Of a DNA stretch of 51,111 bases, positions 18,533-28,629 are shown piece by piece. The DNA lies in assembly GCA_016840065.1 (NCBI GenBank), contig JAEOTB010000115.1, positions 1-51,111 on the forward strand, written 5' to 3'. The DNA is from Candidatus Hermodarchaeota archaeon (GTDB taxonomy: Archaea; Asgardarchaeota; Hermodarchaeia; Hermodarchaeales; Hermodarchaeaceae). Under the pieces are notes generated by a model. That model saw nothing but the letters and a program-made list of their open reading frames with translations. It was not told the DNA's origin and did not search any database. The position numbers and the translations under genes were made by a program. Position 1 is the first letter of the stretch; the number at the start of each line of letters is the position of its first letter.

Positions 18533-18994
18533 CTAGGATGTGGTGCCGACTTTCTCCCAGGCTTGGAATTTTCCTCGGGCGCGCTGAACAAGGACGAGTC
18601 CATATCGTTTCCAGATTTCTTCACGAGTTAAGGATTCCTCCTCAGAGGGCGTACTGCTTGAAGGTGGAGTGTGTTCCTCGGGTCTGATGGACTGGCTATA
18701 GAATATAGAATCAATTAGGTTACCAACGAGCCCTTGCTGGTACTGATCCTTGACGAAGATGAGTATCTGTTCCGTGGGAACATCCACTGGCTGCAGAGGG
18801 TGACGAGTAACGCCCTGGCTGAATGAGGGGCAGACGCCACTCATCGTTTCTTTGACAATCTCGATACAGTTTGGGTCGATGAAGAACTGGCATGTCAGGC
18901 ATTGTCGCCATCCTGCGTGGATAGCTTCTTCAAGGTTGATTTTCTTACCACAAGCAACGCAAGATATGCCGACGGTGCTCAAGTCTATTTTCAT
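18533..18994 (-). CDS. RING-variant zinc-finger protein (Nse1-RING-like), last gene of SMC operon
   Basis: C12-x2-C15-x16-C32-x2-C35-x4-D40-x2-C43-x11-C55-P-x8-H65. ATGA overlap with the KITE gene. Confidence 0.6.
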   Translation of the reverse strand: MKIDLSTVGISCVACGKKINLEEAIHAGWRQCLTCQFFIDPNCIEIVKETMSGVCPSFSQGVTRHPLQPVDVPTEQILIFVKDQYQQGLVGNLIDSIFYSQSIRPEEHTPPSSSTPSEEESLTREEIWKRYGLVLVQRARGKFQAWEKVGTTS

Positions 18995-19650
18995 CGGCTC
19001 TCACCGTCTTCTGAACCCTTTGATGAAGTTGTGCCTACTAGGTAAGTGGCGGCTGTACTGGCGATAGCCTTTCGTCGTTCTGCGTCAAACTCGAGTTCAG
19101 TCCTGGGCCCGTAGGCTATTCGGTTTGTGCTACGTTCAATGTAACCAAGATCCGCGAGGCGCCGGAGTATTCTATCCAGTTGATAACGAGAAAGGCGACC
19201 ACGCGTTACCAATGCTGCATCTAGTTCCTTCGGAGTTGTCTTTCTTGCCCGTCTCCGAGCTCCAGCATTTTCTATAGCCGCGATAATCACTCCTAGCACA
19301 GCATATTCGGGATCGGTTAGTTCGCTAGGAACTCCGTATAGTGTGCGCAGACAGTAACGAGTCTCCCGACCAAGCCGATATTCTACGAGTTCCAACCCTA
19401 GTGGAGTGATATGCTGCCGAAGTAGGCTGAAGAGCTGATTGAGCCCATCACGGTTCGTGTGCAGGGCTTCTAGTAAATCCTGTTGCTTAACACCGATGTT
19501 GAGCTGACTTTCACCGTCACGCCAACGGGCGGTGAGGGCTGCGAAGAGCTGACCAAGTAGATGCTGTTGAGCGCGTTCCTCACTTTCATCGACACCCCGG
19601 TCGGCAGTATCAACTGAGGACTCGTCTCTAGGAGTAGGTTCTTCTGTCAC
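18991..19650 (-). CDS. KITE (tandem winged-helix) protein, Nse1/Nse3-MAGE-like
   Basis: LRQHITPLGLELVE, LGVIIAAIE, LDRILRRLADLGYI and YGPRTELEF (cf. MAGE/Nse3 WGPR..E). Lies in the SMC operon. Confidence 0.75.
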   Translation of the reverse strand: MTEEPTPRDESSVDTADRGVDESEERAQQHLLGQLFAALTARWRDGESQLNIGVKQQDLLEALHTNRDGLNQLFSLLRQHITPLGLELVEYRLGRETRYCLRTLYGVPSELTDPEYAVLGVIIAAIENAGARRRARKTTPKELDAALVTRGRLSRYQLDRILRRLADLGYIERSTNRIAYGPRTELEFDAERRKAIASTAATYLVGTTSSKGSEDGESR

Positions 19651-19655
19651 TTCTA

Positions 19656-20510
19656 CTATTGAACCTCCTGACGGCGCCTAGACTCTACTGCCACAGCAGC
19701 AAAAGAGACTTCATCTGTTTTCCGCTTTGAGGGGCGAAAGGCGATGATGGATTTTCCAAGGAAGGAGGCGGATATTCCTCCATCCCTTATCATCTGACTA
19801 AGAATATCAAGTTCCCAATTCGTTAACAGCTCTGCCAGCTCGTCTATCGAATACCGCTTACCCTCAAGCTGGGCTGTGAGTTTTTCCCGGAGACCTTTCA
19901 GCTCTTCTTGGAGGAGCTGGTCGTAGGCTACCTTATGCCGAGCTAGATCCGCTCGGTCCTCAGGAGTCGACACTACACTGCTTGCCAAGGGGTTATCCCC
20001 GTCAGGCATTGTGAATTCAGGTGCAATGATTTCTCGACTCGGTAAGAATACCAAGGGCGTTGCCCGGCGTTTAACTTCTGTGGCGAAGCGGCTAATCCAG
20101 ACCTCTGGTGTTACATCAATCGCTGCAAGGACCGCGTCTCTCTGTAATTGCATCTTGGCCATATTGAGATAGCAGCGTCCGTCCAGCACATGTTCCCAAG
20201 GTGTTTCGACGAAACGATAGGCTTCAGATACTTCTTCTCGGTCACGCTCTGACTCTCTAATCTCGAAAACCTCTTGGTCCTTTAGAGCCTTCTCATACTT
20301 CTTCGATAGATTCCAAAGAGCCATCACGATACCCTTTACAACTTGCTCTTGTTTATCTGGGCTAAGCGGACCTGTTCTGTTTTGAAGCCTGTAAGATGAT
20401 AAGCTCTCAAGGGGGCAGCTTCTAGAGCAGGGCTCGTCTGCGCCGCATCTTCGGCGACACATCTCCTCCAAACTTTCCTCTGATTTCTTGGAGAGTTTCT
20501 TGTTGCGCAT
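19656..20510 (-). CDS. Putative kleisin (Nse4/ScpA-like)
   Basis: Lies between SMC and KITE, with a TAATG overlap with the SMC stop. N-terminal helices, a linker and a C-terminal winged-helix-like segment (YSIDELAELL...ILSQMIRDGGISAS). Assignment rests mainly on context. Confidence 0.55.
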   Translation of the reverse strand: MRNKKLSKKSEESLEEMCRRRCGADEPCSRSCPLESLSSYRLQNRTGPLSPDKQEQVVKGIVMALWNLSKKYEKALKDQEVFEIRESERDREEVSEAYRFVETPWEHVLDGRCYLNMAKMQLQRDAVLAAIDVTPEVWISRFATEVKRRATPLVFLPSREIIAPEFTMPDGDNPLASSVVSTPEDRADLARHKVAYDQLLQEELKGLREKLTAQLEGKRYSIDELAELLTNWELDILSQMIRDGGISASFLGKSIIAFRPSKRKTDEVSFAAVAVESRRRQEVQ

Positions 20511-23434
20511 TAGCGCTCCACTTCCCCTTTGATAAGCACGATATGGTTCATACTAGCTGGAATTTCTAAACCAACTGTCGAGGGCGCCATGAGAATGAAT
20601 TGTGGGTCTACGGTTAGATTCATTCGACTTAGCTCTAATGCCCGCTGAACAATACTGAGTACAGCAGCACGACTTGCCTCATCGAGACGCTGAGTGAACT
20701 CGTCGATGACATGTAGAGGGCTTTTTGCAAGCGTATGGAGTGCAAGGATGAATGTTTGTGTACCGAGAATCCTCTCTCCACCACTCATGTTTTCATAGGT
20801 TCGCCAAGCATCTTCCTTATTGATAGCTATTTGGATGAACAGCTCAGCACGACTTGGCTCATTCGGGTATCTTACCGTTAGGCGTACCTGTTTTAGGAAA
20901 TGGCTGAGGAGTTTGTTCATTCGCTGGTTTAGACGCTCTAGGGTTTCTTCTAGACGGCGACGCCATTCGATTATTCTTCTTTGGACATCCCCCATCAGAT
21001 TGTCAAGGTGGCGTTTGCGTTCTGCAAGATATTCTTGGAGTTGGCGTACTAATTTTTCCTGCTTTTCATAAGCCTGTCTGTCCTCTGCGGTGGCACGAAT
21101 CGTTTCAATCATCGCTTGAACTTGGATTTGTTCTTCTCGCACTTGGTTAGGAAGCCTTACCATGTCGGGTCTTGGACCTTGGGCTTCAGCTGCCTGTTGC
21201 TGTTCTTTAACTTGATTGCTTAGGTGGTTGTGTTCCTCCTCTCTGTCTCGAAGGTCTCGTGTGAGTCGTTCAATCTCGGATTCGAGTCTGTATCTTCGGT
21301 TATCCAGATTTCTTAGTTGTTCCTCAACTCTGTTGAGACGTGGGATGACCTTTGATAGTGAGTTGTCACACCGGCGATATTCCTCATCTATCCCATCAAG
21401 ACTACTACCCAATTCTGCAATTTGTTGTTCTACATCATCAATGTGCCGCTGCAAATCTGCTACCAAGATATCTCGGTCATCACCGGTTGAGCGGGCTGTT
21501 TCCGGGTGACGAAGCTCTTGAAGACGAATCTTGATCTGACTAATGTCTGAATTAACCTTCATACGATCTAAGCCGAGTACTTGTTCCTGACGCCGTAGCG
21601 CCGCTAACTTGCTTATCACACTACTTGTATCATCACCGAGACGAATTTCACGGAGCTCCCTACCCAGAGAGACTGTCACAGGCGGAGGTGGTCTGGTGAA
21701 CGCACCGATACGCAGGTAGTGACTAGCGCCATCGCTTGTGATGATATTTCCACGTAATCTTTGAGCTGCATCCGCGAGCAGATTAGGGTCTGATGCTTCG
21801 GCAACAGCGGTGTTGATAACGCGGTTTAGAAACATAACCACTCTAGGCTCTCCCTGAATGAGGTCGGCTGCCCAGCCAATGACGGGGGGAGAGATTGTGG
21901 GTCTGCGGCGGGGTTCAGACTCTTCTGAGTGGGCTCTAGCAACAAGTAGGTTTGGTTTCCGGTCTGACCAAAGACGGTCAAAAATCTCCTTAGCGCTACT
22001 AAACGCTTCACGATTGAGAGCAAGGAAAGCGTAAGCATAACGTCCTAGAGCTAGTTTCACGGCGAGTTCATATCTCTCCTGTCCTCTCTTCATCCTTATT
22101 AGAGAGAATAGGGGGCCAAGCACCTTTCGTCCAAGAGCAGCTTCGTCAAGTCCATGGCGAAATTGCTTGCAAGCGCGTAAAATCTCCGCTTCACGGCGTG
22201 AATGCCTCTGGGGCTCAACCGTAAGTTCCTCTTCTGTTGAAGCGATTTGCTGCCTAAGTGAAAGCTGCCTTTTATCCAGTTTGTCTCGCTCAGCGATGAG
22301 TTCTGCTAGTTCGGATCGGAGTGTGTCCTCCTGAAGGGAGGGTGTTTGGGTAATATCTGGTTGAGATGAGCGATAACGGGTTATCCTTGAAATAGCTTCC
22401 TTGAGTTCACTGTCGAGGGCACTTCTCTTGCCGCGCGCTTCCATTTGCTGGTCCCGAAGCACAGTCATGGTGTCTCGCAGTTTCGTCCGCTGAGAGAACA
22501 GGTCACGACGCTTCTCACTGAGTTCTTCCCGACGAGTGTCTAGCTTCTCCATCTTGGACCGCTCAGTTTCCAGACCAGTCTTCGTTTCATTAATGGAGGT
22601 TTCGAGCTGACTGATGAGCTGCTCACGGTGTACGACCTCAGCCCAAGCAGCCTCAACTGTCAATGCTTGAAACCGTTCTTGTAACTTCTGCTTCTGCTCA
22701 TAGGCCTCGAAAGCAGTTTTGAGAATCTGAAGACGTTGTTCCTCTCCACGGATTCGCTGCTGAAGTGGCGTAACATTGGATCGTGCCTGGACCACAAGCA
22801 ACCGCGCCTCTTCTAATTTCTCCATCCAATCATTAAGCCCTGTCTCGTTCAAGAGGGTCTCAAACTTCCTACGAGGTGTCTGGGATGCGAATTGGTCCAG
22901 TGTTTCCGCCTCTGTAACTGCAAGAGGTGAATCACCAAACACTCCCGCTGCCTGGAAGAGTTGACGAATATCCTGTCGACTTATTCGGCGCCCCTTGATT
23001 GTTCGCTGATTATTAACCCAGAGAGAAATCGTGTTGCTGGGGAGGATGCGCAGGCGGATTGATACCGTGTCTTGGTCGAGGAGCTTATTCATCTCCTTCT
23101 CGGGACTTCGCAAGAGACGACGTTCAGCGATGACTGGGTTGTTGAGTTCTAGAATAACCTCAGCGTACTTGTCGAAGGGACCGATGAATTTGATGTTACG
23201 TTGACGCTGAACACGTTTTGATTCTAAACCAATGATTAGTAGCAACGCATCAAGAATCAGGGTTTTACCACTGCCATTAGACCCTGTTATCAGAGTAATT
23301 GGTGAACGGTCTAGATGAACCGTTGTATCTCGATGAATGACAAAATTGACCAGCCTAATACTTCGAAAAACCATGCGAGTGGCGGGTGGGGATTCAGCTG
23401 CCGGAGAGGACGCCACCGCTTCTTTACTGGTCAT
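20510..23434 (-). CDS. SMC-family ATPase, Smc5/6-like
   Basis: IRLVNFVIH, Walker A GSNGSGKT, two long coiled coils, hinge VLGPLFSLI...AVKLALG, signature MSGGER, Walker B SPLHVIDEFTQRLD and QFILMAP (no His, as in Smc5/6). Confidence 0.88.
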   Translation of the reverse strand: MTSKEAVASSPAAESPPATRMVFRSIRLVNFVIHRDTTVHLDRSPITLITGSNGSGKTLILDALLLIIGLESKRVQRQRNIKFIGPFDKYAEVILELNNPVIAERRLLRSPEKEMNKLLDQDTVSIRLRILPSNTISLWVNNQRTIKGRRISRQDIRQLFQAAGVFGDSPLAVTEAETLDQFASQTPRRKFETLLNETGLNDWMEKLEEARLLVVQARSNVTPLQQRIRGEEQRLQILKTAFEAYEQKQKLQERFQALTVEAAWAEVVHREQLISQLETSINETKTGLETERSKMEKLDTRREELSEKRRDLFSQRTKLRDTMTVLRDQQMEARGKRSALDSELKEAISRITRYRSSQPDITQTPSLQEDTLRSELAELIAERDKLDKRQLSLRQQIASTEEELTVEPQRHSRREAEILRACKQFRHGLDEAALGRKVLGPLFSLIRMKRGQERYELAVKLALGRYAYAFLALNREAFSSAKEIFDRLWSDRKPNLLVARAHSEESEPRRRPTISPPVIGWAADLIQGEPRVVMFLNRVINTAVAEASDPNLLADAAQRLRGNIITSDGASHYLRIGAFTRPPPPVTVSLGRELREIRLGDDTSSVISKLAALRRQEQVLGLDRMKVNSDISQIKIRLQELRHPETARSTGDDRDILVADLQRHIDDVEQQIAELGSSLDGIDEEYRRCDNSLSKVIPRLNRVEEQLRNLDNRRYRLESEIERLTRDLRDREEEHNHLSNQVKEQQQAAEAQGPRPDMVRLPNQVREEQIQVQAMIETIRATAEDRQAYEKQEKLVRQLQEYLAERKRHLDNLMGDVQRRIIEWRRRLEETLERLNQRMNKLLSHFLKQVRLTVRYPNEPSRAELFIQIAINKEDAWRTYENMSGGERILGTQTFILALHTLAKSPLHVIDEFTQRLDEASRAAVLSIVQRALELSRMNLTVDPQFILMAPSTVGLEIPASMNHIVLIKGEVER

Positions 23435-23750
23435 TTTGACTTGAAAACCCCTTCTGCCTTTTCAACCCGCTAATAAGTATTTAAGTCGACTTCTTTAACT
23501 TTCTCGTTTTACCTCTGGAACAACAGCTAGCAGGGTTTCCAGCGATTTCCTATTTTTATAAGCCTTTCCGAGGCGTACCTAAACCCAAAAGAACGGTACG
23601 AACCAGAGAACACTGATTGCGAGCGAAAGTGCGCCAACAGATTAGCAAACTGCTGATTAGACACGCTTGTCCAACGGTGTAACAGTTATCTGGACCCGTA
23701 AGATAAACTTAAAGTGGATAAAGCAACGCCAACCTTCTAGGTGATTACAC
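23435..23750. promoter_or_regulatory. Divergent promoter region for the SMC and Ubl operons
   Basis: TTAAATA on the minus strand (23478-23484) abutting the palindrome AAGTCGACTT (23483-23492). AGATAAACTTAAAG (23701-23714) and GGTGA (23740-23744) lie upstream of the Ubl ATG. Confidence 0.45.
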
Positions 23751-24074
23751 ATGACAAGCGATGAAGGCTTTTGGAGATCAATCATAGTTGACGTAGAACC
23801 CCGTCAGAAGGAGTTCCGCATCGGCATAGACGAAGACACCAGCATCGGAGAAGTCATCCGAACCCTAGTCACCCAAGCCCGTGATGAGGGTATTAGTGTG
23901 GATGAGTGGGCAAAGGCGAAAATCGGTGACCAACGAGCAGAGTTTGTGCTCATCCGGAAAGCACCTGAACCCACACGGCTCAGCCCCACCGCCACCTTTG
24001 GTGACTTGGAACCCAAAGTTGTCGATGATGAATTCTTCCTCATGGACGTGATCCCAGAAGTTGGAATTAAATAG
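23751..24074 (+). CDS. Ubiquitin-like (beta-grasp) protein with C-terminal VG-IK
   Basis: Beta-beta-alpha pattern (SIIVDV, EFRIGI, TSIGEVIRTL), FVLIRK, LSPTATFGDL (cf. Ub LEDGRTLSDY) and a terminal strand ending EVG-IK. Directly upstream of the E2. Confidence 0.75.
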   Translation: MTSDEGFWRSIIVDVEPRQKEFRIGIDEDTSIGEVIRTLVTQARDEGISVDEWAKAKIGDQRAEFVLIRKAPEPTRLSPTATFGDLEPKVVDDEFFLMDVIPEVGIK

Positions 24075-24104: not shown

Positions 24105-24854
24105 ATGACTCGAGCAGTTTTTTCTACGGAATTATTCAACGCGCGTGTGGAAACACAGATACAAACCTTCTTCGACACTATGGCCAATCTCTACGGGCAG
24201 CGAGGTTGGTCACCTGAACAGCCTAGGCGCCGAGATTTGAAGTGGGAAACCGAAGACTTCACAGTAGAGATTAATGGTCGTTACCGGGATGGTGCCTACA
24301 AGCAGTTTCACTTCACTATGCGGAACCTCCCAGGATACTTCCGTTGCCCTGGATCTCTCACCGACCCGAATGCTATCCGATGGGAACACCGCTTTTCCTT
24401 CGACTTACCCCGTGAGTATCCACAGAATATTGGGTCTATCCGTCCTTCAGCTGAAACCCCCCTTTATCATCCACGGCTATCCGCAGGCGGGAAAGGACTT
24501 GCCTGCTACTCGGTTAGAGGAGAGCTAGACCGCATCCTTGAAGACCTACCCTTCTTTGTATTACTCAAACCTGATCGTGTTGAGCCGCCATCCCGTTTTT
24601 CCTCTGACCATGGGTTGAATACCCAGGCTATGCATTGGTACGAGCGAAACGCCGATGGGATTGTGGCAACCCTCGAACGTCTTTGGAGAGAGCGCCATAA
24701 AGATCCAGACACATCAGAAGGTGAAAGGCGTAGTGGGCGCGTACAAATCATTACCTCTCCACGGGAAGCTCAACCCGGTCGTCGGAGCCCACGTATCCTT
24801 GATGAAAAGGAGCATCAAACTGGGCGAATCAGAATTTTAGATGATGAAGATTAG
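24105..24854 (+). CDS. E2/UBC-fold ubiquitin-conjugating-like enzyme
   Basis: FSFDLPREYP, TPLYHPRL (HPN variant), GLAC with Cys134, and LNTQAMHWY. Disordered C-tail. Confidence 0.8.
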   Translation: MTRAVFSTELFNARVETQIQTFFDTMANLYGQRGWSPEQPRRRDLKWETEDFTVEINGRYRDGAYKQFHFTMRNLPGYFRCPGSLTDPNAIRWEHRFSFDLPREYPQNIGSIRPSAETPLYHPRLSAGGKGLACYSVRGELDRILEDLPFFVLLKPDRVEPPSRFSSDHGLNTQAMHWYERNADGIVATLERLWRERHKDPDTSEGERRSGRVQIITSPREAQPGRRSPRILDEKEHQTGRIRILDDED

Positions 24855-24870
24855 AGGTGCCTCAAGCATC

Positions 24871-25143
24871 ATGCCAAGTCGGTCTCCAAAGGACGAAGAA
24901 GAAGCTGAAGAAACAAGAACTGAACAGCCAGCGTCTGAACAAGATAGTGCTGAAGATACAGAGGAAGAGCAACTCGTCTTAGAGGAGGAAGACACGTCAC
25001 AGGCCCATCGTAGTCGGATTGTCATATTGGGAGAGAGGGACATCCCCTTCGAAGAGGAGCGACCTCCGAACCTCTTGCCAAACTTTCAAGTGAAGGTTCA
25101 TCGAGTGAGCAGACCAGAGAAGCCAAGGGAGGTTGGACTTTGA
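24871..25143 (+). CDS. Small acidic disordered protein
   Basis: Glu-rich ORF filling the gap between E2 and RING, with a TTGA overlap with the next gene. Alternative start at 24841. Confidence 0.6.
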   Translation: MPSRSPKDEEEAEETRTEQPASEQDSAEDTEEEQLVLEEEDTSQAHRSRIVILGERDIPFEEERPPNLLPNFQVKVHRVSRPEKPREVGL

Positions 25144-25535
25144 GTGTCCATGGTGCAGCACAGGTTAAGTGCGCGATTTGCGATGACGCCGTTTCACTAG
25201 AAAATGCACGGTTGGACTGGTGGATTTGCACCAGTTGCGGAAGCTATTTGTGTCCGCGATGCCACACACTGTTTACTAGGAGTGGTGATGAACTCTGCCC
25301 TGGAACTATAGTTCGAGGAGCTGAGCCGCACCAACCCCATCTCACGCGATTCCTTTCGCCTCGACCTAATCCAGAACCGCCAGCACAACATGGTAGCCCC
25401 TCTGTTCGTATCTTGGAAGATGTTCCTCGTCGACCAAGCCCAAAGCCTGGAGGCAGGGTAATCTTTCTTGATGACAGAGAGCCTGGAGAAGAGGAGCGAG
25501 AGACTAAAACACAAGATGATGAAGATGCCGGCTAA
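25140..25535 (+). CDS. RING-variant zinc-finger protein (candidate E3)
   Basis: C11-x2-C14-x15-C30-x2-C33-x4-C38-x2-C41-x11-C53-P-x9-H64, followed by a Pro-rich/acidic tail. Confidence 0.68.
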   Translation: MSVHGAAQVKCAICDDAVSLENARLDWWICTSCGSYLCPRCHTLFTRSGDELCPGTIVRGAEPHQPHLTRFLSPRPNPEPPAQHGSPSVRILEDVPRRPSPKPGGRVIFLDDREPGEEERETKTQDDEDAG

Positions 25536-27120
25536 CTTACCTGTCCAAATGGAGATTTCCGCCCCTTCCCGAGCCAAGGGTTTACCTCTTGTGAAGCCGA
25601 AAGAAAGTGTAAAAATTGTCCTAACGCGCTCCTTTACTGGTCAAACAGGCGAGTATGCTAATGGTGTTATATTCGTTCGCGACCCATTCGGAACCAATAT
25701 CGCTAGGATACCTTTCAAATTCGGTGAATTTACTAAAGGGACTTTTACTGTTCAGATAAAAGAGGAACTTCTTTCAGGAATCTACACGGCTGCAGTAGCT
25801 TTCGAAGGGGAAAAGGACCTCACCAGCGCTAGAGGAGGATCTGGCGAAGCGCTATTTGGCTGCTTCCGAGTAGAAAAAGGCCTCCCACCAATCATCTCGC
25901 ACAAGGTTACCTACAAGGCTAAAATAACGAATGAGGGAGGCAGGCAGGATGACTACGGGAAAGGCACTTCGGGTGGTATCGACCTCTTCGATGTATCGGT
26001 GTTTCTTGCTACACCAATTTCGATTCCTTTTCGCCAAGAAGTTATCAAACTTAGACCTAACCCTTCAACAGGCGCAGAATCCAATGACTTGGTCGGTAAT
26101 AATTGGGTTCGTTATAGTTTGAAACATTTAGCCTTTGGTAAGAGCTTTACATGTGGCTATACTGCTCTAGTCCGGAATCACTCTGTAAGATATGCGCTTC
26201 CTCCAGTGAGTAATGCTGCAATCCCTCATGAGATCAGGGATTACACTAAGCCAGAGAAGCATATCGAGTCTGATCACCGTCGCATAAAGGAGATGGCTAA
26301 CCAATTAGCAAAGACCTATCGAAATCATAGCTCCTTTGTTGCTGCTGCCATGCGAACTGTCTTTAGAACCTTGAAATATAAGCCTCAACGTTCAGAGCTG
26401 GGAGCCGCTTATGCAATAGCGAATAAGATAGGCGATTGCACGGAATATGCCGCGCTTACCGCTGCCCTTTGTCGGGCAAATGGTATTCCAGCAAGACTTC
26501 AAGCGGGTTTCGGATTTGGTGGAGCCACGTGGGAACGCCACGCGTGGGCTGAGGTTTGGCTCCAAGGCTTCTGGGTCCCTGTAGACTCCACTTGGTATGG
26601 TCGTGACGGAACTCTGGGCATAACAAGCCGTCACATCCCTTTGATTGTTGGAAATTGGATGAGCAGCCGTATCCGCCAAGAATTCAACATTCGCTGGAAG
26701 ACCAAAGGAGGGAGAGCTAGTCCGCCAACTTTAGATGCGAAATGGAAGGTTGAGCGACTGAGTTCTACCCGCGCCGCACCTGGACCTCGCCTGAGGCCTT
26801 CACCTATTCGGCTTAGGGTCAAAGCACCAGATGCTGTACCTCGTGGCACTCTTCTGAAACTTGGCATCAAGATCAGCCCGGTCCCAAAGGTTTCCGCAGC
26901 TCTGACTATGATGGCGATATCTGCTACAATTTCCGATAGCGAGATGGACCGCATCGTTGCGCTGAAACCGATTCCAATAAGCATTTCTAAGCCAATGGAT
27001 ACAACCATGGAGTTACAGATGCCCCGTTGCATTCCCAAAGCAAAGCTCTCCCTTAGAGTTTGGCTCGACGGAAAACCCACAGAAGCAACGTGGGAAAAAG
27101 CTATTGGATTAATCCAATAG
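25516..27120 (+). CDS. Transglutaminase-like (Cys-His-Asp) protein with flanking beta-sandwich domains
   Basis: GDCTEYA.L..ALCRANGIPARL, HAWAEVW and WVPVDST. No obvious signal peptide. Confidence 0.9.
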   Translation: MMKMPANLPVQMEISAPSRAKGLPLVKPKESVKIVLTRSFTGQTGEYANGVIFVRDPFGTNIARIPFKFGEFTKGTFTVQIKEELLSGIYTAAVAFEGEKDLTSARGGSGEALFGCFRVEKGLPPIISHKVTYKAKITNEGGRQDDYGKGTSGGIDLFDVSVFLATPISIPFRQEVIKLRPNPSTGAESNDLVGNNWVRYSLKHLAFGKSFTCGYTALVRNHSVRYALPPVSNAAIPHEIRDYTKPEKHIESDHRRIKEMANQLAKTYRNHSSFVAAAMRTVFRTLKYKPQRSELGAAYAIANKIGDCTEYAALTAALCRANGIPARLQAGFGFGGATWERHAWAEVWLQGFWVPVDSTWYGRDGTLGITSRHIPLIVGNWMSSRIRQEFNIRWKTKGGRASPPTLDAKWKVERLSSTRAAPGPRLRPSPIRLRVKAPDAVPRGTLLKLGIKISPVPKVSAALTMMAISATISDSEMDRIVALKPIPISISKPMDTTMELQMPRCIPKAKLSLRVWLDGKPTEATWEKAIGLIQ

Positions 27121-27126
27121 GGAGTA

Positions 27127-27987
27127 TTACTTACGTTTGCTTCGACAAAACGCTTCGCTGCACCGTGGATTCCGCATTATAGGCCCACTAGTAGATTGAT
27201 GGTGGCGAAGATCGTACTTGATGAATCGCCCAAATGCAGGTTCAAGTCCTTCTCGCCAGTGATTGGTCTGCCTCCACTCCTCTAATCCAACAACAACCTT
27301 GGTTGCCTCCCAAGCCATTATCGCGCCAACAACTGAGGTTATGAAGCTTATCATGGGGAACTTGGGTAATGTGTCGACAAAGAAAGGGTCACAACTAGCG
27401 CGCACCTGCTCTGCCACAAGTCTATCAACGAATTCTTTACTCCAAGAACAAACCATACAAGCAGTGTCTGGAGGTGTGAGGACCTCCACAGAAACGAAGT
27501 CTAGACCCATTGCTCCATTGATGACTGGGCGGGGTGGCTGAAGACTGAGGTTCTTGGCATTAAGCAGATACCTGGCGTAGTGGTTATCGACACCCACCAG
27601 AACAAGGTCAACATCCCACACCTTCTCTTTCGCTTCCTGAATGGGTACAGGATAGGGTTCTACAATAGTATCTGTTGCTAGTTCCCCGAGTCGTTCTGCA
27701 ACCGCATCTACCTTAAACTTCACATCATGGTCCCCAGGCCGGAAGAAAACGCACCGGTTTAGGTTTGAAGCAGCTACTTTATCTGGGTCGACGAGTAATA
27801 TTTTCCCGATGCCTAGCAGACCGAGATTCTTGCAGACCTCATTCCCCACGGCGCCAGCCCCGACCATGAGCACAGTTGCATTTTGTATTCTCACCAGGTT
27901 ATCGGTGCCTAGCCAGCGGCGTGTTCTGTCATGACGGTCACGTTCGAAGAATCCTAGGTCTACGCGTGTCGGAGGTTCCTCAGGCAC
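27127..27987 (-). CDS. E1-like (ThiF/UBA) activating enzyme
   Basis: GAGAVGNEVCKNL, SNLNR, GVDN..AR, Zn site CMVC...C..C, and candidate catalytic Cys199 (RASCD). Confidence 0.9.
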   Translation of the reverse strand: MPEEPPTRVDLGFFERDRHDRTRRWLGTDNLVRIQNATVLMVGAGAVGNEVCKNLGLLGIGKILLVDPDKVAASNLNRCVFFRPGDHDVKFKVDAVAERLGELATDTIVEPYPVPIQEAKEKVWDVDLVLVGVDNHYARYLLNAKNLSLQPPRPVINGAMGLDFVSVEVLTPPDTACMVCSWSKEFVDRLVAEQVRASCDPFFVDTLPKFPMISFITSVVGAIMAWEATKVVVGLEEWRQTNHWREGLEPAFGRFIKYDLRHHQSTSGPIMRNPRCSEAFCRSKRK

Positions 27988-27990
27988 GGT

Positions 27991-28629
27991 CTATACACCC
28001 CCTTCCAAGGAGCCCTCGAGCTCGTCAGATGGTACAGTGCCAACGGGGACCTTGGGGAGATATGTGCACCATTCTACGCGTTCTAGCTGTAATGCATCAC
28101 TTTCGTTTGAGCGGCGCAGCATGTAGACCTTGAAGAAACGGCTGAGAGGATCTATGAGGAAGAAAACATTACCTTCCGCACAAAAAGGGGTTTTAAAAAA
28201 TGTGTTAAGGTCGGTGGAGGAGAACTGAGGATTGCCGCCGAATGGATGAGAATGCCATAGACCAATGACTCGAGGCGTATGTGGATTTGACCCGTACCTA
28301 TCATGTAAGGCTAACCTGTATTCCAGGATTCCCTCCGGGGTGAACCTGGCATAGGTCATGCTCGATTCCACTTGTCCTGTTGCCCAATCTGTCACCCTGA
28401 CATATTTTGTGCCTTGCCATTGACGACGAAAACCGAGAATCACCCCAAGTGCCTCATGCGGGGGTTTGCGTTGCGCCTCTCGTAGACAATAGTCGAAGAT
28501 GTCCTGACAAGTCCGTTCGTAAATATAGACTGGGTAGACCGTGTCCTCTGATAGCGCATCCTTTTCTTTTGTCTGTGTTTCTGGAGGTGGTTGAGATGGG
28601 GCTCGGTCTGGCAAATTCCTCTTCTCCAT
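27991..28629 (-). CDS. JAB/MPN+ (JAMM) metallopeptidase
   Basis: E59 (HEALG) and WHSHP-x-SSTD (H126, H128, S137, D140). Confidence 0.9.
   Translation of the reverse strand: MEKRNLPDRAPSQPPPETQTKEKDALSEDTVYPVYIYERTCQDIFDYCLREAQRKPPHEALGVILGFRRQWQGTKYVRVTDWATGQVESSMTYARFTPEGILEYRLALHDRYGSNPHTPRVIGLWHSHPFGGNPQFSSTDLNTFFKTPFCAEGNVFFLIDPLSRFFKVYMLRRSNESDALQLERVEWCTYLPKVPVGTVPSDELEGSLEGGV

Follow-up and report, generated by a model that had tools for sequence, protein, structure and literature searches.

A probable ubiquitin-like modifier with a capped Val-Gly end, encoded beside its own predicted conjugation cascade in a few Asgard lineages

Does a small acidic protein that ends in a single glycine, masked by two further residues, serve as a protein modifier, and which enzymes would free that glycine and use it? 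The question is raised by a 107-residue open reading frame (ORF) at positions 23751-24074 of a stretch of 51,111 nucleotides from Candidatus Hermodarchaeota archaeon (assembly GCA_016840065.1, 83.9% complete; contig JAEOTB010000115.1, positions 1-51,111, forward strand), hereafter the window. An initial annotation, made from the sequence alone, took the product for a non-canonical ubiquitin-like protein (Ubl) whose terminal Ile-Lys is removed by a neighbouring JAB protease to expose Gly105. Its observation is confirmed here and its interpretation is partly supported: we consider it likely that the gene encodes the precursor of a Ubl modifier, from a previously unnamed family present in few Asgard lineages, that loses its cap by cleavage and is then charged and conjugated by a cascade of its own. 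The analysis was computational throughout. What was observed by computation is the Ubl fold, C-terminal conservation, the catalytic motifs found in the partner proteins, and the synteny and co-occurrence of the genes; what we infer is each enzymatic step, which enzyme trims the precursor, and the targets.

The Ubl gene lies on the forward strand, with a Shine-Dalgarno-like AGGTGA (23739..23744, +), read from the sequence, 6 nt upstream of its ATG. The product ends in ...MDVIPEVG-IK followed by the stop; the 3' codons are GTT GGA ATT AAA TAG, with Gly105 at 24063-24065, the tail ATT AAA at 24066-24071 and the stop at 24072-24074, so that the IPEVG-IK end and its lack of a di-glycine were read correctly in the initial annotation. 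Two parts can be told apart: a mature part, residues 1-105 ending in Val104-Gly105 (23751..24065, +), delimited by the beta-grasp model, by conservation and by the ratio of nonsynonymous to synonymous substitution rates (dN/dS), and a cap, Ile106-Lys107 with the TAG stop (24066..24074, +), which is an unconserved tail with DNA that diverges directly past the Gly codon. The protein is acidic, as had been noted, with 23 Asp/Glu against 14 Lys/Arg and an isoelectric point (pI) of 4.47. Its 19 close homologues are all annotated as 'hypothetical protein' and come from Asgard metagenome-assembled genomes labelled Hermod-, Odin- or Promethearchaeota. Compared with same-genus orthologues, dN/dS is 0.03-0.05 with synonymous sites near saturation; the ORF is a real gene under strong purifying selection.

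An exhaustive profile search for Ubl relatives yielded only 33 representative clusters at E<=1e-3, which makes this a small family, and 30 diverse sequences from them were aligned (alignment A2). Within this alignment Val104 never varies, the residue after it is Gly in 23 members and Ala in 7 distant ones, and nothing beyond position 105 aligns. The C-terminal ends were also read in 30 genomes, drawing on a phylum scan of 400 Asgard genomes in which the relevant GTDB families are labelled f1, f2, f11 and f12. Every one of these 30 copies has Gly at position 105. The stop codon stands directly past Val-Gly in 13 of them (ten from f12, one from f2, one of two from f11, and one f1 genome, L023), and 17, given as the other f1 genomes, carry a tail of 1-3 residues; the tail exists in ten versions (IK, D, L, Q, F, K, I, VLP, FSS and QKQ), and same-genus relatives with 93-95% protein identity have D in place of IK. 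At the level of DNA, the V-P-E-V-G codons show synonymous changes only, and beyond the Gly codon similarity disappears from the very first base, as it does between genes. Among further cluster representatives from metagenomes, nine stop exactly at VG and two at VA. Gly105, on which the initial annotation had centred, is the last conserved position of the protein, followed by 0-3 hypervariable residues or by nothing.

Two relatives are fusions of the Ubl to the E2-like protein described below, P0026 (301 aa, L003:2940-3845) and P0034 (297 aa, L062:8-901), both joined at ...VVGG; with the junction at VGG, they would work only once cut at the Gly. The gene past P0026 has a Rep_1 (rolling-circle replication protein) domain, and this fusion copy may lie on a plasmid or virus.

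A conserved Gly end, disposable tails and fusions joined at the Gly are together, as judged from sequence, the signature of a Ubl that reacts through its Gly carboxylate. The assignment of Gly105 as the predicted reactive end and of Ile-Lys as a putative removable cap is well supported on these grounds. By this reading the cap must go before the Gly carboxylate can be adenylated, and most likely it is clipped off before the E1/E2/RING cascade attaches the Ubl to its targets. It is barely conceivable, by comparison, that the tail is itself the functional element, its Gln or Lys acting as the substrate of a co-encoded transglutaminase in an ATP-independent ligation. In its favour, the transglutaminase core encoded in the operon keeps its fold signature intact, the terminal residues of some orthologues are Q or QKQ, and the Ubl here ends in Lys; we rejected this possibility on the f1 tails D, L, F, I, VLP and FSS, on the 13 of 30 genomes that have no tail, and on the lack of any conserved Gln or Lys past the Gly.

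If the Gly carboxylate is the reactive group, is the protein that carries it folded like a Ubl? Single-sequence searches of Pfam, NCBIfam, PADLOC and PDB with the Ubl gave nothing significant. AlphaFold run on a shallow alignment of 20 Ubl sequences (A1) gave an unusable model (pLDDT 51), and only A2 produced a confident AlphaFold (AF2) model, with pLDDT 85.7, pTM 0.76 and topology bb-a-a-bb-b; the modelled strands are at residues 8-15, 20-27, 63-69, 75-77 and 94-102, and the helices at 32-45 and 50-58. The order of strands and helices in the model is that of a beta-grasp with one extra helix (50-58) between helix 32-45 and strand 63-69, which is the insertion past the first helix that the initial annotation had noticed. 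Foldseek matches the model to EccD/YukD Ubl domains, TINCR, UBX, ubiquitin variants, SUMO1, ISG15, Hub1 and NEDD8, with probability 1.00 to ubiquitin, SUMO, ISG15 and UBX. VIA-align gives Z 10-11 for the toluene monooxygenase small subunit, EccD, SUMO1 (Z 10.4, root-mean-square deviation 1.9, 76 residues), ISG15, a bacterial Bil Ubl (8tyx) and Caldiarchaeum ubiquitin (6fno; Z 10.1), its beta-grasp matches all being tied within one Z unit. All of these structural neighbours are ubiquitin-like domains, and those in the ESM Atlas agree. The beta-grasp fold on which the initial annotation depended is thus borne out by AF2, Foldseek and VIA alike.

The sequence signals, though weak, point only to beta-grasp families: among the 30 A2 members YukD is seen in 11 (E 0.01-1) and PI3K_rbd, UBXL, RA and UBAC1-UBL in one or two each, and the family profile matches the PDB entry 5zmb, a 'ubiquitin-like protein', at E 0.012. 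The YukD (PF08817) threshold is not reached, the best match scoring 14.9 bits against a cut-off of 27, and the neighbouring genes encode E1, E2 and JAB proteins, with no secretion genes. Neither ubiquitin (PF00240) nor Ufm1 (PF03671) matches any of the 30 family members at E<=1, and the ThiS/MoaD Pfam families match none of the 30.

The neighbouring genes encode candidates for the enzymes that such a modifier would require. The window encodes a small E1 of 286 aa with a ThiF fold (27127..27987, -; PF00899, E 1e-35). Ten orthologues share without change its nucleotide-binding Gly motif, R78, D134, zinc site C177xxC180...C276x4C281 and crossover-loop C199. In the PDB it comes closest to the active adenylation domains of UBA6, UBA1 and UBA7 (7e-18 to 1e-13), followed by ThiF (8e-11), UBA5 (2e-9) and MoeB (3e-8). 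A small, ThiF/MoeB-like E1 with a zinc site could also belong with a sulfur carrier of the ThiS/MoaD/Urm1 type, which would be thiocarboxylated by the E1 and not conjugated to proteins, and such E1/beta-grasp pairs are ancestral sulfur-transfer systems (PMC1779556). We consider such a role highly improbable. The E1 is nearer the UBA6/UBA1 adenylation domains than ThiF or MoeB and has no rhodanese domain, no biosynthetic genes lie nearby, E2-like, RING-like and JAB genes are conserved alongside, and the genome has three other ThiF genes; the Ubl, for its part, shows no ThiS/MoaD Pfam signal and has no GG end, and on these grounds together the sulfur carrier was rejected.

Directly downstream of the Ubl is the gene for an E2-like protein (E2L) of 249 aa (24105..24854, +), which has the motifs H122-P-R124 and A133-C134 and a disordered C-terminal tail with RVxIL/RILD motifs. 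No Pfam, NCBIfam or PADLOC match to E2L is above threshold, and a single-sequence PDB search returned nothing significant. The family comprises 56 homologues, in which H122-P-R124 and A133-C134 are invariant. When its profile (alignment A3) is compared with the PDB, 27 of 34 matches are E2 enzymes, aligned over PxxYP...HPN...C, though the matches are weak (best E 0.019); UQ_con matches, below threshold, occur in 3 of 13 members, and the neighbours of E2L in the protein-language-model Atlas are clusters of 'putative ubiquitin-conjugating enzyme E2' with a score of 0.93. These comparisons suggest that the protein is a divergent, E2-like enzyme. In six genomes (G081, G084, G090, G079, G080 and G001) the E2L profile matches cross one in-frame stop near the C-terminal tail; E2L is probably shorter there, with the gene for the acidic protein following at once.

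The remaining genes of the cluster follow in the same direction. A small acidic protein of 100 aa with pI 4.6 (24841..25143, +) is conserved in the operon, and the next gene encodes a RING-like zinc-finger protein (25140..25535, +), a candidate E3 that is syntenic in f1 and has sub-threshold Pfam matches to zf-UDP (RING-finger) and zf_RING-like. The tails of E2L, the acidic protein and the RING-like protein (24700-24854, 25000-25143 and 25400-25535) carry conserved hydrophobic/acidic motifs, GRVxIL and RILDDED-like (A3), that resemble SUMO-interacting motifs. The last gene of the run, of uncertain start, encodes a protein with a transglutaminase core, a papain-like fold (25468..27120, +; PF01841, E 3e-20). 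Among close f1 genomes (L045, L046, L049, L050 and L051) it occurs either in a long form of ~540-550 aa, as here, or in a short form of ~295 aa; within f12, the two genes for a RING and a transglutaminase-like protein stand together ~7 kb downstream in L054, and in the stretches examined of the other f12 genomes no transglutaminase-like gene was found.

The JAB/JAMM metalloprotease of 212 aa (27991..28629, -; PF14464, E 4e-10) has the full motif E59...H126-S-H128...S137..D140, invariant over 9 orthologues. It was right to place a JAB in the locus, where it stands beside the E1, but it is not an immediate neighbour of the Ubl, lying ~4 kb downstream on the opposite strand. E1 and JAB have only generic matches in NCBIfam and PADLOC. 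The dedicated E1, E2-like, RING-like and JAB genes beside the Ubl hold up well, with intact catalytic motifs and with synteny compared over 20 genomes or loci.

Is this set of genes held together elsewhere? The Ubl occurs once per genome in 31 of the 400 Asgard genomes (17 of 18 in f1, 1 of 1 in f2, 2 of 2 in f11 and 10 of 12 in f12), and the profile scan of the 400 finds the family absent from the 366 genomes outside these four GTDB families. E2L is found in 32 of the 400, in the same four families. The two genes are adjacent in f1, f12 and f2, and E2L lies directly 3' of the Ubl in the metagenomic loci L001, L004 and L006 too (hhalign E 1e-43 and 1e-46). The E1 is syntenic with the Ubl in 18 of the 20 loci, the remaining loci being cut by contig ends or lacking an E1; the gene context of many metagenomic relatives on short contigs (L002, L007, L008, L063-L065 and L071) is out of reach.

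From these parts a sequence of steps can be proposed. The Ubl would fold as a beta-grasp, and cleavage of its Ile-Lys cap would expose the Gly105 carboxylate. The small E1 would then adenylate Gly105 and probably hold it as a thioester on the crossover-loop Cys199, from which the Ubl would be handed to Cys134 of E2L. The RING-like protein may help to attach the Ubl to lysines of its targets, which may include the adjacent SMC5/6-like complex discussed below. The JAB of the operon would reverse conjugation and, in the f1-type lineage here, most likely removes the cap too.

Several observations weigh against this scheme. The E2 assignment of E2L draws on weak profile matches (best E about 0.02) and on motif conservation. 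The top structural neighbours of the Ubl include beta-grasp proteins that are not conjugated, namely EccD/YukD domains and the toluene monooxygenase small subunit. Ala takes the terminal position in seven distant family members, and one of them is on a phage-like contig without E1/E2, so that the fold family is not tied to conjugation everywhere. Finally, the JAB adjoins the E1 equally in f12, whose Ubl has no tail beyond the Gly.

The second and third of these observations are what one might expect if the Ubl were a beta-grasp adaptor, akin to YukD/EccD or to a monooxygenase small subunit, that binds non-covalently, for instance to the SUMO-interacting-motif-like tails of its neighbours, and whose C-terminus has no chemistry to perform. 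The best Pfam signal is indeed YukD, the top structural matches include EccD and TmoB-like proteins, and relatives with Ala ends or long extensions do exist. A non-reactive end would not stay Val-Gly while everything beyond it drifts, however, and an adaptor would not explain a stop codon exactly past the Gly in 13 of 30 genomes; the strict co-occurrence and adjacency with an E1 and a Cys-bearing E2L, and the Ubl-E2 fusions, also count against it, and we regard the adaptor as improbable.

The relatives that lack the Gly have contexts of their own. A distant branch (P0039, P0041, P0043, P0044 and P0046) has ...NAKVA(S/A) instead of VG and is often fused to long Cys-rich extensions. In P0044 (L009:5798-7285) the fusion partner is a long Zn-ribbon protein; the contig, which has Thy1, NDK, NT5C and a phage zinc-binding domain and no E1/E2 nearby, looks viral. 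Another relative (L070:8001-9422) ends in Val-Ala and is followed by a 365-aa ThiF gene; upstream of it is a 333-aa protein that is not E2L, itself downstream of a 2675-aa STT3-domain protein.

To return to the modifier, which enzyme would trim its cap? By analogy the JAB is plausible in this role, and by precedent it is the best candidate: CsRpn11 trims nine residues past the GG of Caldiarchaeum pro-ubiquitin and also deconjugates (PMC6043591), and BubAB, a Ubl-E2 fusion, is cut just past its conserved Gly by the JAB domain of BubCD (PMC11601596). Retention of the JAB in lineages whose Ubl has no tail implies that removal of the tail is not what maintains it, and its presence in tail-less f12 makes deconjugation the more likely conserved role; as read from this pattern, that role is presumably deconjugation, with precursor trimming an additional one in f1. 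The transglutaminase/papain-fold protein is an alternative candidate for tail trimming or deconjugation. The modifier would be the same, yet trimmed by the transglutaminase-core protein (Cys-His-Asp) or by a general carboxypeptidase, with the JAB a deconjugase only; we think this unlikely, although it deserves more weight than the alternatives above. Consistent with it, in addition to the equal conservation of the JAB beside the E1 in f12, the transglutaminase-like gene is in the Ubl operon of tail-bearing f1 and is absent or ~7 kb off in tail-less f12. ATG8, a eukaryotic single-Gly Ubl, is trimmed by cysteine proteases. So is UFM1 (PMC9638016). On the other side, the operon of the tail-less f2 genome (L058) includes a transglutaminase-like gene too, the Ubl of one f1 genome (L023) is tail-less, and the tested archaeal and bacterial precedents for Ubl precursor trimming are all JAB/JAMM enzymes (PMC6043591, PMC11601596). 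The presence of the tail fails to separate the candidates, the JAB being found in all lineages and the transglutaminase-like gene being adjacent both in f1 and in tail-less f2.

The genome also has a canonical ubiquitin system, on contig C69 (L010:831-1980, minus strand; L067), in which a RING protein of 81 aa, a PF00240 ubiquitin and an E2 are adjacent to a ThiF-type E1. This ubiquitin has 78 aa and ends in ...TRTEGG with no tail, and its E2 has 153 aa with HPN...C. The Val-Gly modifier is therefore distinct from a GG-ending Asgard ubiquitin, as had been claimed, the latter being encoded in the same genome on another contig. In total there are four ThiF-type and four JAB-type genes; on contig C84 (8533-10678) ~1 kb separates a ThiF-type gene (293-aa frame) from one with a JAB domain (380-aa frame), and the two may form a third E1/JAB pair, perhaps of a SAMP-like kind.

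How does the system compare with known ones? The Caldiarchaeum ubiquitin operon encodes a pro-ubiquitin, an E1, an E2, a small RING protein and an Rpn11-like JAB, CsRpn11, that both trims and deconjugates (PMC6043591, PMC5654768). The parts list of the Caldiarchaeum and Asgard ubiquitin operons, with a beta-grasp modifier, a single-domain E1, a Cys-bearing E2, a RING-type finger and a JAB, is the same as the one predicted here, where E2L would be the E2. In contrast to those operons, the Ubl here is not matched by Pfam ubiquitin, and its end is one Gly after a Val instead of an LRGG-like sequence; E2L is divergent, at 249 aa with HPR and with no Pfam match above threshold; and the system is linked to an SMC-kleisin-KITE operon.

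For the C-terminus the closest counterpart appears to be UFM1, by a resemblance of mechanism and not of descent. Maturation strips Ser-Cys from UFM1 to give a Val-Gly end, and it is Val-Gly that remains on modified lysines, where K-GG methods miss it (PMC9638016). In both proteins a Val-Gly end is masked by a two-residue cap, Ser-Cys in UFM1 and Ile-Lys here. The Ubl can accordingly be called non-canonical, as it was in the initial annotation, relative to archaeal ubiquitin and the small archaeal modifier proteins (SAMPs), but a capped Val-Gly end as such has its precedent in UFM1 (PMC9638016). The small E1 is a further likeness, having a zinc site and, about 20 residues past CxxC, a crossover-loop Cys. 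The layout of its zinc site resembles that of UBA5, and the location of the UBA5 Cys250 has been described (PMC11601596). Unlike in the UFM1 system, the E1 here is nearer UBA6/UBA1 (7e-18) than UBA5 (2e-9), E2L keeps an HPN-like HPR motif, and a JAB is at hand where UFM1 is trimmed by cysteine proteases. Searched against the PDB at E<=10, the Ubl family profile picks up no UFM1 chain, and Pfam Ufm1 (PF03671) has no match in the source genome nor in the 400 Asgard genomes. A 2026 paper describes structure-detected 'Ufm1 homologues' in nine Asgard clades (PMC12962969); the present Ubl occurs in four families only, a narrow spread that argues for at most a subset of these.

The bacterial Type I Bub systems share with this one the single C-terminal Gly and, in P0026 and P0034, Ubl-E2 fusions that, as in BubAB, are joined right past the conserved Gly. 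They differ in that the Bub E1 and E2 have no catalytic cysteines and form oxyester intermediates, whereas C199 of the E1 and C134 of E2L are invariant here, and in that the system here is archaeal, single-copy and conserved across whole families, not sporadic. No DUF6527/BubE was seen, and neither the Ubl nor E2L has a PADLOC match to the Bil/Bub/CBASS-type models. With SAMPs, Urm1 and ThiS/MoaD the system has in common an archaeal beta-grasp protein, a ThiF-type E1 and JAMM proteases. SAMPs have a GG end, work without an E2 or E3 and also serve as sulfur carriers; the Ubl, on the contrary, has a single Gly, is accompanied by E2-like and RING-like proteins, and shows no ThiS/MoaD sequence signal and no rhodanese or biosynthetic neighbours.

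A further question is what the modifier acts on. Divergently transcribed from the Ubl operon is an operon for a structural maintenance of chromosomes (SMC) protein, a kleisin, a KITE protein and a RING protein (18533..23434, -), whose products are a possible target or partner complex. Eleven f1 genomes keep the whole block, in which RING-KITE-kleisin-SMC is divergent from Ubl-E2L-acidic-RING-transglutaminase, which in turn is convergent with E1-JAB-helicase. In f12 (L053, L054, L056, L057 and L061) the genes are collinear, in the order SMC-kleisin-KITE-RING-JAB-E1-Ubl-E2L-acidic. The order in f12 differs yet the genes remain linked; rearrangement has thus not parted the Ubl cascade from the SMC operon. 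Operons related to SMC5/6 have been described from Asgard archaea in the papers searched; one of these regards the Nse1 RING as a eukaryotic innovation and makes no mention of a linked Ubl cascade (bioRxiv 10.1101/2024.01.07.573240). Tentatively, we suggest that the Ubl system may be the dedicated tagging system of the Asgard SMC5/6-like complex, a prokaryotic counterpart of Smc5/6 with its Nse2/Nse1 ligases, a possibility to which we give less than even weight. The likeness to SUMO and Smc5/6 (Nse2 and the Nse1 RING) is one of functional analogy only, in that a modifier cascade is tied to an SMC-kleisin-KITE operon with a RING of its own; SUMO ends in GG, and there is no sequence evidence of a specific kinship of the proteins here with SUMO, UBC9 or Nse2.

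If the Ubl is conjugated, its conjugates would escape di-Gly remnant proteomics. The last Lys of the mature Ubl is K89, so that trypsin is predicted to leave a remnant of 16 residues (V90 to G105) and K-GG enrichment would miss the conjugates; the position of K89 bears out the early expectation that di-Gly proteomics would fail here. Glu-C, cutting past E103, should leave Val-Gly (+156.09 Da) on target lysines. The invariant VG, the disposable tail and the Ubl-E2 fusions make maturation and activation accessible to direct test with four small recombinant proteins.

No known relatives of eukaryotes are closer than the Asgard archaea, whose ubiquitin machinery serves in reconstructions of the origin of eukaryotic protein tagging. 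The locus described here would place a second complete Ubl cascade beside canonical ubiquitin in some Asgard lineages, with a modifier and an E2-like protein that escape Pfam, NCBIfam and PADLOC, a UFM1-like end on the modifier, and a cascade that is conserved beside an SMC5/6-related operon. If the tie to that complex is real, a capped precursor and a JAB would time the modification of the SMC complex or of its DNA-bound clients, and the coupling of SMC complexes to Ubl conjugation would predate eukaryotes.

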